Source of the DNA: an uncultured Alphaproteobacteria bacterium
GTDB taxonomy: Bacteria > Pseudomonadota > Alphaproteobacteria > HIMB59 > GCA-002718135
DNA length: 64,000 nt
Assembly (NCBI GenBank): GCA_902582755.1
Contig: CACHSZ010000002.1
Coordinates: forward strand, 157,539-221,538
Direction of reading: 5' to 3'
The position numbers were made by a program, and so were the translations under genes. The notes under the pieces were generated by a model. That model saw only the letters and a list, made by a program, of their open reading frames with translations. It was not told the DNA's origin and ran no database searches. Shown here in pieces: positions 2,538-56,892 of this stretch (position 1 is the first letter of the stretch; every line of letters begins with the position of its first letter).

Positions 2538-3518
2538 TTATCTGATTTGTACTGCTGCTAATGGAGCAACAGCATCAACGTTATCAGCTGTAACAAATGC
2601 AGCACCAGTATCCATAGCTAATCCAGCCATTCCATATTTTGTACTTAGGAATAACTGAACAATTGGCATATACCCTTGGATAAATGGTTGTTGATCAATT
2701 ACAACATCAATGTAACCAGAATTAATTCCATCAACAATAGGAGCTGATAAATCAAATCCAGCACCACATACTTCTTCAGTACCATGACCTGCAGCCTTCA
2801 TATATGTTGGTAAGCTTGCAGTTAATCCTCCATGATCAGTAATTGCTAATTTGATATCAGGATTTGCACTGTAAGTAGCCACGTACATAGGAGTTCCCTG
2901 TGATGCATCTGAGTTTACGTTATCAGGAATTTCTTGATAAACAACTTCAACACCTGCTGCTTCAACACCTGCTATTGCACCTTTAGTTCTTTCTCCTCTA
3001 TTTGGCATACTTGCGAGACCCCAGATAAATGCTTTATCTCCAGCTTGTAGACCACAAACTTCAACAGCTTTTTTACCTAGATTAAATCCAGCATCAAATA
3101 GATCTGCTCCTGCATAACCAAACCCTTCAGTTTTATATTCTGATTCAAGATCAGGAAGAGGTGTATTCATAGTAGTAATCACTATTCCCATTTCTCTTGC
3201 TTCTTGAATGATAGGTCTCATTGCAGCGTCTCCTGGAAAACCATAGATTGCAATTCCATCAGGCTGTAAAGCAACAGCTTCTTTAAATTGTTTAATCATG
3301 ATTTCTGAGTTCCACTGTGACCAGTAGTAATCTACTTCACAACCAGTGTGTTCAGCAGCAGCTACTGCACCATTATAAACGATAGTTCCAAATGGGCCAC
3401 CTTCAGGACCACCTGGGAAAAATATAAATTTCTTATCACAGCTGTAATCATTTTTTGCTACTGCTGAAGTAGATACAAAAGCAAAAAATAAAGCAATGAC
3501 AGCAAAGATTTTTTTCAT
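2538..3518 (-). CDS. Sugar ABC transporter periplasmic substrate-binding protein (RbsB-like fold)
   Basis: Start moved to MKKIFAV (GGAGG RBS upstream, signal peptide); QPDGI, GFDLS and DQQPFIQGY motifs. Confidence 0.9.
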   Translation of the reverse strand: MKKIFAVIALFFAFVSTSAVAKNDYSCDKKFIFFPGGPEGGPFGTIVYNGAVAAAEHTGCEVDYYWSQWNSEIMIKQFKEAVALQPDGIAIYGFPGDAAMRPIIQEAREMGIVITTMNTPLPDLESEYKTEGFGYAGADLFDAGFNLGKKAVEVCGLQAGDKAFIWGLASMPNRGERTKGAIAGVEAAGVEVVYQEIPDNVNSDASQGTPMYVATYSANPDIKLAITDHGGLTASLPTYMKAAGHGTEEVCGAGFDLSAPIVDGINSGYIDVVIDQQPFIQGYMPIVQLFLSTKYGMAGLAMDTGAAFVTADNVDAVAPLAAVQIR

Positions 3519-3708
3519 AATTCCTCCAAATAATTTATGCATTAATTTATAAGTAAATAAATCAATAATACAATTAAATTAAAGTATTAAAGATCTTATT
3601 ACAAATTAAAATCCCCTTTCTTTTGATAGATAAAATAGTCGCACTTATTTACTAATTTAAAGCAATTTTTATATTTATAAGATTATTAAAAAGTGCTATT
3701 TTTTGATT

Positions 3709-53975: not shown

Positions 53976-54341
53976 TTATTTTTTAATTTTTTCCCATTCT
54001 GCCATACCGCCAGTAATATTCTTAACGTTTTTGATACCCATATCCTGCATAGTTTTAGTGGCTAAAGTTCCTTGTCCACCGACACCACAAAATACAACAT
54101 ATTCTTTATCTGGGTTGTTTTTAAAAAATTCGTTTTCTAAAGGACTACCCTCGGCTAAATAAAATTCAAGAAAAGCCTTGTCCAAATGCATTGCATTTCC
54201 AATAGTTTCTTTTTCAAAACTCTCTTTATCTCTAACATCGATAAATTGTACATTGGGATCATTAAGCTTTTCTTTTGCTTCTTCTGCAGTTATATTTTCA
54301 ATTTCATTTTTAACACTCATTAAGTCTTCAAATTTTTTCAT
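53976..54341 (-). CDS. Rhodanese-like domain protein
   Basis: IDVR, active-site loop FCGVGGQG, GGM..W. Confidence 0.85.
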   Translation of the reverse strand: MKKFEDLMSVKNEIENITAEEAKEKLNDPNVQFIDVRDKESFEKETIGNAMHLDKAFLEFYLAEGSPLENEFFKNNPDKEYVVFCGVGGQGTLATKTMQDMGIKNVKNITGGMAEWEKIKK

Positions 54342-54427
54342 AATAGTCCTTTTATTTAATAAGCAGTTTTGTTTTGAACAATAATAAAACTAGCAGAAAA
54401 CTTAGAAGTTTAAAATGAAAATTTTTT

Positions 54428-55498
54428 TTAATTCAGTTTATCTTTACGGTAATTAGATCGTATTTCGTCAAGTAGGATTGATTTTGACTTATCTTTTACA
54501 TGCCAAAAATCCCAGCCATTACAACTTGGTAGTCCTTGTATCTTTGCTCCCATTTGATGAATAGAACCTGTTAAATCTTTTATTTTAAGTGTACCATCAA
54601 TGCTAACCGTTGCTTTAAAACGTTCTTTTTTATCTGTTAATACGGCGCCGGGTGGAATAATTCCTTGTTCGACTAATTCACCAAAAGGAACCTTCGGTAA
54701 ATCTTTTCTGCTCTTTGCAATAGTAACAACTTCTTCTTTCAATACTTTTGTATTCTTTAATCGTTCTTTTGAAAGTTTAACGTAGTCTTTATCTTTTTCT
54801 ATGCCAATAAAGTTACGTTGTAATTTCTTAGCTACAACAGCTGTTGTCCCACTTCCAGAAAAAGGATCAAGAACAAGATCACCTTTGTTTGTTGAGGCTA
54901 ATAAAATTCGGTAGAGGAGAGCTTCTGGTTTTTGTGTTGGGTGTGATCGTTGATTGTTATCTTTACGTAATCTTTCTTTCCCTGAACAAATAGGAATATA
55001 CCAGTCACTACGCATTTGTTTTCCTTCATTTAGTTCTTTGAGATTTTGATAGTTGAATGTGTATTTCGCCTCTCTTGATGTTGTACACCATAAAAGTGTT
55101 TCATGGGCATTTGTGAAACGTGTACCACGAAAGTTTGGCATAGGGTTTGTTTTATGCCAAATAATATCATTCAAGATCCATAAGCCTTCATCTTGGATTG
55201 TAGAGCCAACACGTAAAATATTATGATAACTCCCTATGACCCAAAGCGCTCCACCTTTTTTTAGAACACGTTTACATTCATTAAGCCATGCATTGGTAAA
55301 TTGATCATATTCTTTATATGTGCTAAATTTATCCCAATCTTGTGTAACAGCTTCGACCGTTGTTTGATCAGGTCTGTATAATGTATCCTTTAATTGAAGA
55401 TTATATGGTGGATCAGCAAAAATAAGATCAACCGAATGATCTTTTAATTTTTTCATTTCCTTAATGGAATCACCCAAAATAATTTGATTTTTCTTCAT
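54428..55498 (-). CDS. ccrM: Cell-cycle-regulated adenine DNA methyltransferase (GANTC)
   Basis: [46 protein letters not shown] and C-terminal CNGW.FW; downstream of rnhB. Confidence 0.95.
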
Positions 55499-55564
55499 AA
55501 TTGATAAAAAGAATCTTTAAGCAGATATGGAATCAGGTCAATTGAGTTATCAACAGGTGGAATC
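55467..55564. promoter_or_regulatory. Cluster of four GANTC sites around the ccrM start, plus a DnaA-box-like 9-mer
   Basis: GAATC at 55467, 55511, 55530 and 55560; TTATCAACA at 55547-55555. Confidence 0.55.
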
Positions 55565-55602
55565 TTTAGGTAGGGATAACCTTAAAATTTGGCTAAAAAT
55601 AT

Positions 55603-55626
55603 AAAAAAAGGGGTCCGTAGACCCCT
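55603..55626 (-). terminator. Rho-independent terminator with a cUACGg tetraloop
   Basis: AGGGGTC-TACG-GACCCCT followed by a T-run on the minus strand. Confidence 0.85.
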
Positions 55627-55660
55627 GGAATAGTTCATCAAATGGGAGGAATGATGAAAC
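55603..55660 (-). ncRNA. Candidate trans-acting small RNA with an anti-Shine-Dalgarno loop (AbcR/MmgR-like architecture)
   Basis: Minus strand GUUUCAUCA-UUCCUCCCAUU-UGAUGAAC-UAUUCC-AGGGGUC-UACG-GACCCCU-UUUUUU; AATAAT at -12..-7. Confidence 0.65.
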
Positions 55661-55718
55661 TTAATTATTATTTAGTGTTTGTCGCATCTTTTTGAAGCAT
55701 AATAAAATAATATTTGAT

Positions 55719-55733
55719 ATGCATTCTTTGCAT
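55719..55733. promoter_or_regulatory. LysR-type T-N11-A inverted repeat upstream of the sRNA candidate
   Basis: ATGCA-TTCTT-TGCAT centred about 66 nt upstream of the inferred sRNA 5' end. Confidence 0.45.
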
Positions 55734-55750
55734 GGATAAATTTGGGTAAT

Positions 55751-56365
55751 TTATTTTTTTAATAACGATTTAATTGGTTCAAATGATTTTCGGTGAAACT
55801 GAGTTACACCGTGCTTGTGTATTGCATCAATATGTTTTTTAGTTCCATAACCTGCATTTTTTTTCCAATCATAAAATGTAAACTTACTATCAAGTATACT
55901 CATCAGTCGATCACGGTGAACTTTTGCAATAATAGATGCACTTGCAATCGATAAAGATTTTTTATCGCCGCCTATTATAGATTTTTCATTTTGATAATTT
56001 AATGAAAAGTTTCCATCAATAATAAAATGTGGATTTTCTAAATGAAATTTTTCTATCACTCTTTTCATTGATAATTTTGTTGCTTCCAAAATATTAATTG
56101 TATCTATTTCTTCGACGCTAGCGTAACCTAAGTAATATTGAAGTTTTTTTTCTTTTTGTAATTTTTTAAAAAATAAGAATAATTTTTCTCTTTGTTTTGC
56201 TGTATGTTTCTTTGAGTCAGTAATGGGTATTTCTGATTCTAAATTATCATAATTAGAAAAATAACATCCACAACTCACCACTGGGCCTGCCAACGGACCT
56301 CTACCTACTTCATCTAAACCAATTACAGGTCCATTAATTGATTTCTCTATAGAAAAATCAGTCAC
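55751..56365 (-). CDS. rnhB: Ribonuclease HII
   Basis: GLDEVGRGPLAGPV, DSKK, IDGN, ASIIAKV.RD and GYGT..H motifs. Confidence 0.96.
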   Translation of the reverse strand: MTDFSIEKSINGPVIGLDEVGRGPLAGPVVSCGCYFSNYDNLESEIPITDSKKHTAKQREKLFLFFKKLQKEKKLQYYLGYASVEEIDTINILEATKLSMKRVIEKFHLENPHFIIDGNFSLNYQNEKSIIGGDKKSLSIASASIIAKVHRDRLMSILDSKFTFYDWKKNAGYGTKKHIDAIHKHGVTQFHRKSFEPIKSLLKK

Positions 56366-56892
56366 TATTTTTCATTTAATCTTGGCATGATTTCAACAAA
56401 ATTACAGGGCTTGTGTCTAATGTCTAATTGATATTGTAAAATTTCATCCCAACCATCTTTGCATGCACCCGTAGATCCAGGTAAACAAAAAACATATGTA
56501 CTATTTATTAAGGCCGCAACTGCACGTGATTGAATTGCTGATGTACCAATTTTTTCAAAACTAACTTGGCGAAATAATTCCCCAAATCCATCGATATGTT
56601 TACTAGCAATAGCATTTACAGCTTCTGGTGTTGTATCTCTTCCTGTTAGCCCAGTCCCACCAGTTGTAATAATGCAATCAATGTCTACTTCTTTTGACAT
56701 TGTATCTAAGGTATCTTTTATTTGAGAAACATCATCTGGGATAATTGTACGTTTAATCATTGTATGACCAGCATTAGTAATACGATTTTCTAATGTATCA
56801 CCAGATGTATCATTCTCTTTAGTTCTTGAATCTGAGATGGTAATTACAGCAATATTTATAGGAACAAAATCTAGAGAAGTATCAATTGGCAT
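56365..56892 (-). CDS. moaB: Molybdenum cofactor biosynthesis protein B
   Basis: TISDSR, TTGGTGLTGRDTTPEA, LPGSTGAC and PCNF motifs. Confidence 0.93.
   Translation of the reverse strand: MPIDTSLDFVPINIAVITISDSRTKENDTSGDTLENRITNAGHTMIKRTIIPDDVSQIKDTLDTMSKEVDIDCIITTGGTGLTGRDTTPEAVNAIASKHIDGFGELFRQVSFEKIGTSAIQSRAVAALINSTYVFCLPGSTGACKDGWDEILQYQLDIRHKPCNFVEIMPRLNEK

Follow-up and report, generated by a model that had tools for sequence, protein, structure and literature searches.

The spacer between rnhB and ccrM in an uncultured alphaproteobacterium of the HIMB59 lineage raises a simple question: what is held in 252 nt of intergenic DNA when the genome-wide median spacer is 18 nt? The window, by which we mean the whole stretch of 64,000 nt that was analysed (assembly GCA_902582755.1, contig CACHSZ010000002.1, positions 157,539 to 221,538 of the forward strand), comes from a genome of 1.43 Mb in 35 contigs, with 29% GC and 84.6% completeness, and no gap in a crude gene map of it is larger than this spacer. 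The first-pass annotation, made by a model from the letters and their open reading frames (ORFs), had counted the gap among the window's largest and had placed on its minus strand an unannotated small RNA (sRNA) gene, with a loop complementary to Shine-Dalgarno (SD) sequences and a LysR-type box upstream. The elements it described (a hairpin, a UAUUCC segment, a cUACGg terminator with a U-tail, an AATAAT hexamer, and a dyad) are all present where it had put them. We conclude that positions 55603-55733 most probably hold a genuine sRNA gene that is lineage-restricted and independently mobile and has an SD-complementary seed, and whose product would repress the synthesis of solute-binding proteins (SBPs). 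That the unit is a functional RNA gene at all is very probable; the full chain, from an LsrB-type operator through an anti-SD sRNA to repression of transporter SBP mRNAs, is judged likely, with less assurance.

Conservation and relocation of the hairpin unit

Folded over 66 nt, the unit forms exactly two hairpins (-20.5 kcal/mol, z = -4.27; none of 200 shuffles was equally stable), and the loop of the first, UUCCUCCCAUU, is unpaired in both the minimum free energy and the centroid structures. The second hairpin is the terminator, the sole terminator-like site in a scan of positions 54300-56500. In a set of 61 genomes the spacer was recovered by BLAST from 26 of the 36 other congeners, with no real match outside the genus, and an alignment of 27 loci revealed that conservation along the spacer is uneven. 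Hairpin 1 and its loop are invariant save for one lost loop T (L023) and G-U changes in the stem, and the terminator is maintained with one compensatory pair; the ~10 nt that follow a CTAAAT-type hexamer, which include AATAAT, are hypervariable.

A covariance model comprising the hairpin and terminator (R1) matches the host genome once, at 91.8 bits, the next match scoring 23 bits. In an order-wide draw of 151 genomes, 59 of 69 other congeners each had a single R1 match scoring 40 bits or more; 11 of these are divergent copies scoring 40-53 bits, which were fetched, and nine of the 11 have a different stem (AATATT/AATATT) and a different terminator (GGAGCC/GGCUCC) around an identical loop. A broader model built later (R2) added one variant at 40.7 bits, with stem TGATTTA/TAAATCA and loop AUUUUCCUCCCAAAAAA, from one of ten genomes of other genera in the family (genome G063, genus g4). 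It found nothing convincing in the nine other genomes, which represent six other genera, or in five genomes of the sister family, and no match in 14 ccrM-upstream regions from other genomes of the class, nine of them with rnhB upstream. Weak matches in the sister family (20-29 bits) were rejected as plain terminators after ORFs or as SD-region antisense (6 and 4 loci inspected), and those in genus g6 proved to be an Hsp20-gene terminator or to be without the CCUCCC loop, none being the sRNA. A 21-mer over the loop has one exact occurrence in each of 58 species-representative genomes, every one of them a marine single-cell or metagenome assembly from the same marine group.

The divergent copies allowed the two stems to be examined for covariation, using 29 aligned sequences of which 27 are distinct. 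All 29 have the loop core TCCTCCCA without any change, the core UUCCUCCCA included, and hairpin 1 has three different stem wordings (TTCATCA, AATATT, and TGATTTA). Paired positions make up 96.6% of cells, vs. 38-60% when the 3' partners are slid. Both sides have changed in eight of 13 stem pairs, and none of 500 shuffles reached the covariation score; five of the seven pairs of hairpin 1 changed on both sides, and three of the six modelled pairs of the terminator, in which 100% of cells are paired, show compensatory changes. Stems that drift around an unchanging UCCUCCCA loop are, as read from this alignment, the signature of a seed-presenting RNA hairpin. A conserved terminator beside a decayed CCUCCC loop, one part of the outcome that the first-pass annotation had said would tell against it, is not what was found. 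Its second proposed seed, UAUUCC, fared less well, being replaced in relatives by other U/C-rich wordings. Two candidate small peptides were also rejected: a 10 amino acid upstream ORF (ATGCTT...TAA) is not retained in relatives, and a 17 amino acid frame beginning in the 3' arm is without an SD and is absent from relocated copies.

The module does not always reside between rnhB and ccrM. In nine of the 11 divergent congener copies it lies between the genes for ETF-ubiquinone oxidoreductase (ETF-QO) and an Acyltransf_2 protein, on the strand opposite to both; these flanks were identified in L068, where the module occupies 849-1061, and in L072, and the other seven loci share the same flanking sequence. 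The G063 module is divergent from an Acyltransf_2 gene and convergent with glpX. At the relocated and G063 loci no gene lies downstream on the RNA's own strand, and a role as a cis-acting leader is therefore excluded there. Site occupancy is reciprocal: in G011 and G020, which have the relocated module, the rnhB-ccrM spacer is only ~75 nt and is empty, and the ETF-QO/Acyltransf_2 spacer of the host genome (G000:C18:2905-2950) is ~40-45 nt and likewise empty. It therefore appears that a ~180-nt unit comprising the dyad, promoter block, hairpin, and terminator moved as a block. Judged from these sequences, the sRNA module is an independent gene and no appendage of rnhB or ccrM; loop invariance, covarying stems, and relocation of the whole support the proposal of an unannotated anti-SD sRNA gene that would be its own transcription unit. 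The features of the locus and of a candidate target within the window are listed in Table 1.

Table 1. Positions in the window of the predicted sRNA gene, its promoter elements, and associated features
Feature	Positions	Strand	Remarks
Operator dyad ATGCA-N5-TGCAT	55733-55719	minus	ATGCAaagaaTGCAT; equals TGCA-N6-GCAT, T-N11-A; putative LsrB/VtlR-type site
Promoter block ATTATGCTTCAAAAAGATGCGACAAA	55678-55703	minus	nearly invariant, 23 loci
-35-like CTTCAA	55697-55692	minus	inside promoter block
Half-sites ATGCT/ATGCG	ATGCG 55687-55683	minus	in promoter block; inferred proximal regulator site
-10-like CTAAAT	55675-55670	minus	16 nt after CTTCAA; CTAwwT or TTATAT in relatives
AATAAT	55672-55667	minus	not conserved; e.g., AGTGGT in relatives
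Predicted sRNA, ~60 nt	55603-55662	minus	5' end inferred from position of -10; 3' end in U-tract
Hairpin 1 (anti-SD seed)	55658-55634	minus	7-bp stem TTCATCA (55658-55652)/TGATGAA (55640-55634)
Hairpin 1 loop, 11 nt	55651-55641	minus	DNA TTCCTCCCATT; RNA UUCCUCCCAUU
Single-stranded linker CTATTCC (CUAUUCC)	55633-55627	minus	U/C-rich in all copies; wording and length variable
Intrinsic terminator AGGGGTC-TACG-GACCCCT	55626-55609	minus	followed by T7 (55609-55603)
rnhB	55751-56365	minus	Pfam RNase_HII; followed by the 252-nt spacer
ccrM (CcrM-type N6-adenine methyltransferase)	54428-55498	minus	Pfam N6_N4_Mtase and RAMA
ccrM promoter/leader	55499-55585	minus	separate from sRNA; three GATTC (GANTC = CcrM target), GTTATC/GATAAC inverted repeat, further TTATCAA, TTGACC
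Candidate target site UUUGGAGGAAU	3520-3530	minus	just upstream of start codon 3518; single match in window
Sugar SBP gene	2538-3518	minus	Pfam Peripla_BP_4

The operator and its putative regulator

Positions of the promoter elements place the predicted RNA start near 55662 and give a length of ~60 nt, and the dyad then lies at about -71 to -57. Both arms of the dyad are invariant in 23 loci, the 5-nt spacer between them being free; it also stands upstream of the relocated copies, where it is perfect or has one arm mismatch, and upstream of the G063 copy, where one arm reads ATGTC. A half-site, ATGCG or ATGCA, is found 27-31 nt downstream of the dyad in every version of the module, the relocated copies having an analogous CTAGAAATGCAT at equal distance. 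A two-site layout of dyad and half-site is typical of LysR-type regulators.

An LsrB motif, TGCA-N6-GCAT, lies at -72 to -57 in the promoter of the sRNA NfeR1 of Sinorhizobium meliloti and is backed by gel shift and mutation (PMC10746234). Our dyad is the same in wording and in inferred position, the latter depending on the inferred start. It also fits six of the seven specified positions of the VtlR box, GCAT-N3-TG-N3-T (PMC7486931). CTTCAA-N16-CTAAAT is close to the quoted alphaproteobacterial sigma-70 consensus of CTTGAC-N17-CTATAT (PMC8844928). AATAAT, which had been taken for the -10 element, varies among relatives, and it is CTAAAT, lying 3 nt upstream of it, that is conserved as a -10.

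The perfect dyad occurs seven times in the host genome, compared with one to three times in five third-order Markov simulations, and a 19-bp extended form is present one to three times per genome in 24 of 31 congeners, a reversed control giving 0. Three of the seven dyads are in AT-rich spacers, preceding the sRNA, a 58 amino acid ORF (dyad at G000:C1:246293), and a riboswitch-led ATP-grasp gene (dyad at G000:C6:10979). The ORF, in the region G000:C1:246046-246309, belongs to no Pfam family and has its own terminator; its dyad, ~28 nt, TGCAT half-site, and promoter repeat the layout of the sRNA gene, which makes it a likely second regulon member under this operator. In the region G000:C6:10800-10995, the circularly permuted ATP-grasp gene is led by two glutamine riboswitch aptamers in tandem (Rfam RF01739, 66 and 61 bits), with an ATATGCA-N5-TGCATAT dyad ~57 nt upstream of them. 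The sharing of one dyad by the sRNA and the glutamine riboswitch suggests a nitrogen-linked co-regulon. An NtrC-type site was considered and rejected, the dyad having the spacing TGC-N7-GCA vs. the published TGC-N11-GCA. In a sister-family genome (G119), in which the sRNA was not found, an ATGCA-N5-TACAT dyad lies upstream of a small ORF resembling a membrane protein, and the operator may therefore predate the present distribution of the sRNA.

The host genome contains exactly one LysR HTH_1 gene (G000:C14:1400-2284), which follows rpe and encodes 295 amino acids. A single full-length relative of the protein, with 37-52% identity, is found in 94 of 148 high-quality genomes of the class, even where a genome has dozens of LysR candidates. 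The loci of 29 relatives were fetched and the flanks of 24 scanned; at 13 of the 24 there is a TrxB-like neighbour, a Pyr_redox_2 protein of ~320-340 amino acids of the thioredoxin-reductase type. Linkage to trxB is a published hallmark of lsrB (PMC11975290). Alignment with the trxB-linked relatives is gap-free save for an indel of 1-3 residues near residue 212, and the helix-turn-helix sequence LSQSAxSRQI is conserved. NCBIfam naming was uninformative, its best matches, YafC and GcvA, being far under their cut-offs. Two one-mismatch matches to the dyad at the LysR gene were rejected as autoregulatory sites; both are within coding sequence and at chance level. These comparisons suggest that the sole LysR regulator of the host is of the trxB-linked LsrB type, and it may bind the dyad.

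Predicted targets and rival explanations

Targets were predicted on 1458 crude genes derived from long ORFs, with starts picked by SD pairing, by scoring duplexes between the 13-nt loop and positions -30 to +12 of each start. Among the 12 best duplexes (-14.4 kcal/mol or lower), eight belong to SBPs identified by Pfam: one Peripla_BP_4, five SBP_bac_1/8, one SBP_bac_5, and one DctP. The remaining four are a LacI regulator, a PhyH dioxygenase, KARI, and an AMP-binding enzyme. When the same leaders were ranked by their pairing to the tail of the host 16S rRNA, only one of the top 12 was an SBP. The enrichment of SBP leaders for which the first-pass annotation had recommended looking is thus present among the best predicted targets. 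The best site, AUGGGAGGAAU, precedes a sugar SBP gene and forms 11 perfect pairs (-17.6 kcal/mol). Top SBP targets, whose leading members are at G000:C3:79755, C2:107573, and C2:113437, carry GGGAGGAA ribosome-binding sites, and in the orthologous or paralogous leaders of the top target across the genus GGGAGGAA is invariant (25 of 25) while its flanks vary.

SD usage in this genome is itself skewed. Of the 1458 genes, just 57 have GGAGG upstream, 21 of them in a 26-member SBP set obtained by iterated hidden Markov model search from four Pfam-verified seed families. Among the GGAGGA genes left over, several encode N-termini resembling signal peptides, and these could be further SBPs from other families. 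Within the GGAGG genes, the extended form GGAGGAA[AU], in which AA[AU] pairs with the AUU of the loop, is found in 14 of 21 SBPs vs. five of 36 others (p = 9e-5). Conversely, GGAGGU, the U of which would pair with the 16S tail, precedes none of the 21 SBPs vs. 13 of the 36 other genes. By the difference between their sRNA and 16S pairing energies, 22 SBPs are distinct from 146 other genes with strong SDs (Mann-Whitney p = 2e-9). It follows from the skew that co-adaptation of the sRNA and SD sequences is directly testable. The sugar SBP gene of the window, put forward by the first-pass annotation as a possible target, does have a real and plausible site; its loop duplex of -11.8 kcal/mol is only mid-ranking, as ~45 leaders score better.

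Sequences of the spacer are found in RNA data. Thirteen RNA-labelled marine runs contain 19-33% of its sampled words, and contigs from all four metatranscriptomes examined, each from a different study, cover the hairpin, with the limitation that assembled contigs break at polymorphic sites and show neither RNA ends nor strand; read-through from rnhB or DNA carry-over looks alike.

The mechanism we favour is that of a self-contained sRNA gene on the minus strand. Its sigma-70-type promoter, preceded by the dyad and the proximal ATGCG half-site, would be bound by an LsrB/VtlR-type regulator and, from the inferred start, would drive a discrete ~60-nt RNA composed of a hairpin displaying the UUCCUCCCA loop, a variable U/C-rich linker, and the intrinsic terminator. 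The loop would pair with GGGAGGAA-type SD sequences, which are concentrated on the mRNAs of ABC and TRAP transporter SBPs. Such pairing would most likely block ribosome binding and lower transporter synthesis, without Hfq; repression is the inferred direction. The inducing signal may be linked to nitrogen status, as the same operator precedes the tandem glutamine riboswitch.

Several observations weigh against this account. The stem changes represent about three lineage events, so that the count of eight pairs in 13 overstates independence. Metatranscriptome contigs bridge the terminator into the start of ccrM, and in two studies they reach 55707-55711, which is upstream of the inferred start. 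No Rfam family matches the window at its gathering score, and at E up to 10 the region 55400-55850 yields only snoRNA or MicF-type noise (E 0.75-10), with no ar15 match; in the host genome neither ar15 (RF02345) nor ar14 (RF02344), the families of the AbcR and NfeR1 RNAs, is matched at E up to 1. A search of Rfam for alphaproteobacterial sRNAs, which the first-pass annotation had recommended, therefore returned nothing, and its check for hfq also came back negative: Hfq (PF17209) was not found in the host genome (84.6% complete), in four congeners (90-96% complete), or in a sister-family genome that is 99% complete. ProQ was likewise not found in the host genome, and the RNA, if it works, does so without either protein. 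The host LysR gene follows rpe and does not adjoin trxB, its product has one cysteine vs. the conserved pair C144/C273 of Agrobacterium LsrB, and no dyad lies near the gene. Of the LsrB/VtlR ortholog that had been anticipated, the type of regulator is thus supported and the gene neighbourhood and cysteine pair are not. The target evidence is confounded in that any anti-SD sequence pairs with strong SDs, and the enrichment statistics overstate independence because SBP genes are paralogous and highly expressed; kin are not independent either, so that the p-values are overstated; moreover, both the gene map and the SBP set are crude, the latter being incomplete and limited to four families.

The neighbouring genes provide two other ways to explain the unit. 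It could be no more than the 3' untranslated region of rnhB with its terminator, in which case the CCUCCC hairpin would be an accessory stability or termination element with no function in trans. No other terminator was found for rnhB ahead of 55626-55603 in the window, and the RNA contigs reaching upstream of the inferred start would fit; however, nine of 11 divergent copies and the g4 copy are away from rnhB and downstream of no same-strand gene, congeners with a short spacer manage without the module, a conserved promoter block and operator intervene between the rnhB stop codon and the hairpin, and a terminator role does not explain an invariant loop. We consider this origin very unlikely. 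A cis-acting leader or attenuator of ccrM would likewise account for the location directly upstream of that gene and for the contigs that bridge the terminator, and a candidate structured element has been reported in the same spacer of Candidatus Pelagibacter ubique (PMC2704228). Against it, the ccrM-proximal ~85 nt are conserved alone in congeners that have no module, relocated copies face a convergent gene and have nothing to regulate in cis, and, the linker being variable, no alternative anti-terminator pairing is conserved; there is little to recommend a leader function, and its probability is very low.

Two further explanations dispense with either the proposed action or the RNA itself. 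A real sRNA might act other than by SD occlusion, e.g., as a protein-binding decoy or as an activator that opens structured leaders, and the lack of any Hfq or ProQ found, the brevity of an RNA with a single conserved 9-nt motif, and the inferential basis of the direction of regulation are all compatible with that. On the other hand, the conserved loop is the exact complement of the conserved GGGAGGAA in SBP leaders, and the closest characterised RNAs, AbcR1/2 and NfeR1, are repressors that pair with the ribosome-binding site (PMC8844928, PMC10746234); another mode of action is therefore unlikely, though it is not to be dismissed lightly. Alternatively, the feature could exist only at the DNA level, as clustered regulator sites with a terminator that works in both directions. 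Where the module has relocated, its terminator directly adjoins the convergent gene's stop codon and may thus serve that gene, and discrete transcription is itself inferred. Such a feature is highly improbable: pairing in hairpin 1 is kept through compensatory and G-U changes that are sensible on one RNA strand only (UG is tolerated on the minus strand), the stems drift around a loop that does not change, and a promoter-like block is correctly placed. An sRNA gene that acts by SD occlusion thus remains our preferred explanation.

Relation to known small RNAs and to the ccrM leader

AbcR RNAs comprise about three stem-loops and associate with Hfq. The predicted RNA resembles AbcR1 and AbcR2 (alpha-r15, RF02345; Sinorhizobium, Agrobacterium, Brucella) in having a sigma-70-type promoter with a putative LsrB/VtlR box upstream and predicted targets that are mostly the ribosome-binding sites of ABC-transporter SBP mRNAs (PMC8844928, PMC7486931), and its loop UUCCUCCCAUU fits the published AbcR anti-SD motif at seven of eight positions (PMC8844928). 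It differs in size and architecture (~60 nt with one hairpin and a terminator, vs. 112 positions in the ar15 Rfam model), in having no conserved second seed in 29 sequences where AbcR has a published aSD2, UUCCCCUC, and in being single copy, the published AbcR pair being tandemly encoded (PMC3712013). There is also no match to the ar15 covariance model, and Hfq was not found in the host genome or in five further genomes, each at least 90% complete.

The NfeR1 or cuckoo RNAs (alpha-r14, RF02344; CcsR/RSs0680 of Rhodobacter) have loops with a CCUCCUCCC-type anti-SD on compensatorily variable stems (PMC10746234, PMC4615179). The NfeR1 promoter shares with the present gene the wording and inferred position of the LsrB site described above. 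SBP mRNAs are the targets of NfeR1, which those same papers link to nitrogen status; here the dyad also precedes a glutamine riboswitch. However, the cuckoo RNAs have two to four adjacent hairpins, whereas here there is one, the second hairpin being the terminator; the loop reads UUCCUCCCA rather than CCUCCUCCC; and no upstream NtrC-type TGC-N11-GCA, no ar14 match, and no conserved cuckoo-type neighbour gene were seen. As no covariance-model match, conserved second seed, multi-hairpin architecture, or Hfq was found, the RNA is classed as a minimal variant outside both ar15 and ar14. The sequence comparisons support its being a minimal variant of the alphaproteobacterial anti-SD sRNA kind and an analog of AbcR; of the first-pass suggestion of an AbcR homolog or analog, analogy stands, and homology, with neither family matched, does not.

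The predicted regulon also has precedent. VtlR of Agrobacterium binds three promoters, those of abcR1, atu1667, and vrsA (PMC7486931), and the dyads here similarly predict a tiny direct regulon of sRNA gene(s) plus small-protein gene(s), as in the VtlR/LsrB regulons of Brucella and Agrobacterium, even if the host regulator gene differs from those in not lying beside trxB and in being without the cysteine pair. A broader proposal is that a circuit of LsrB/VtlR, anti-SD sRNA, and SBPs is ancestral to the Alphaproteobacteria and has been kept here in miniature, with canonical SDs largely reserved for SBP mRNAs, GGGAGGAA tuned to the sRNA over the 16S tail, and one Hfq-independent 60-nt RNA throttling most of the nutrient-uptake proteome, possibly in response to a nitrogen or redox signal. 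We offer this tentatively and regard it as rather doubtful.

Accounts of streamlined marine oligotrophs usually credit them with minimal regulation and few sRNAs, and SBPs dominate their proteomes. If the sRNA gene acts as proposed, an abundant ocean group would have a compact global switch for nutrient uptake, and the LsrB/VtlR-AbcR/NfeR1 paradigm, a control logic previously known from root-nodule and pathogenic relatives, would extend from the Rhizobiales to a distant free-living lineage. It would also mean that this class of RNA can function with one 9-nt seed and no Hfq, and the loop and operator together would provide a defined probe for transporter regulation in marine metatranscriptomes. 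In the available parts of the literature on Pelagibacter small RNAs and on the host lineage (PMC5069720), no description of this RNA was found. Note that Stav et al. 2019 (PMC6429828) report one sRNA in a SAR11 strain, with the details confined to their supplement, and that report may bear on novelty.

A structured element has, however, been described in the equivalent spacer. The 'babIM element' of Candidatus Pelagibacter ubique (Meyer et al. 2009; PMC2704228) likewise lies between rnhB and a DNA-methylase gene and has two stems in series; the spacer there is 121 nt long, the first stem is described as invariant, and the loops as not conserved. That description better fits the ccrM-proximal GTTATC/GATAAC region than an RNA with a conserved loop, the comparison being one of published description; the ccrM leader at 55499-55585 may correspond to the babIM element. 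The leader is kept even where the identity of the congener CcrM is 80%, and its ~85 nt are conserved also in three more distant congeners (L025-L027), in which the rnhB-ccrM spacer is only ~75 nt and has no sRNA module. No obvious SD stands in front of the ccrM ATG. In two small, AT-rich alphaproteobacterial genomes of 1.2 Mb (L088 and L089), the ccrM leader has CUACCUCC on the sense strand at the expected SD position, together with GAGTC and TAGTC sites and TTGACA. Overall, rnhB is upstream of ccrM in nine of 14 loci fetched from other genomes of the class.

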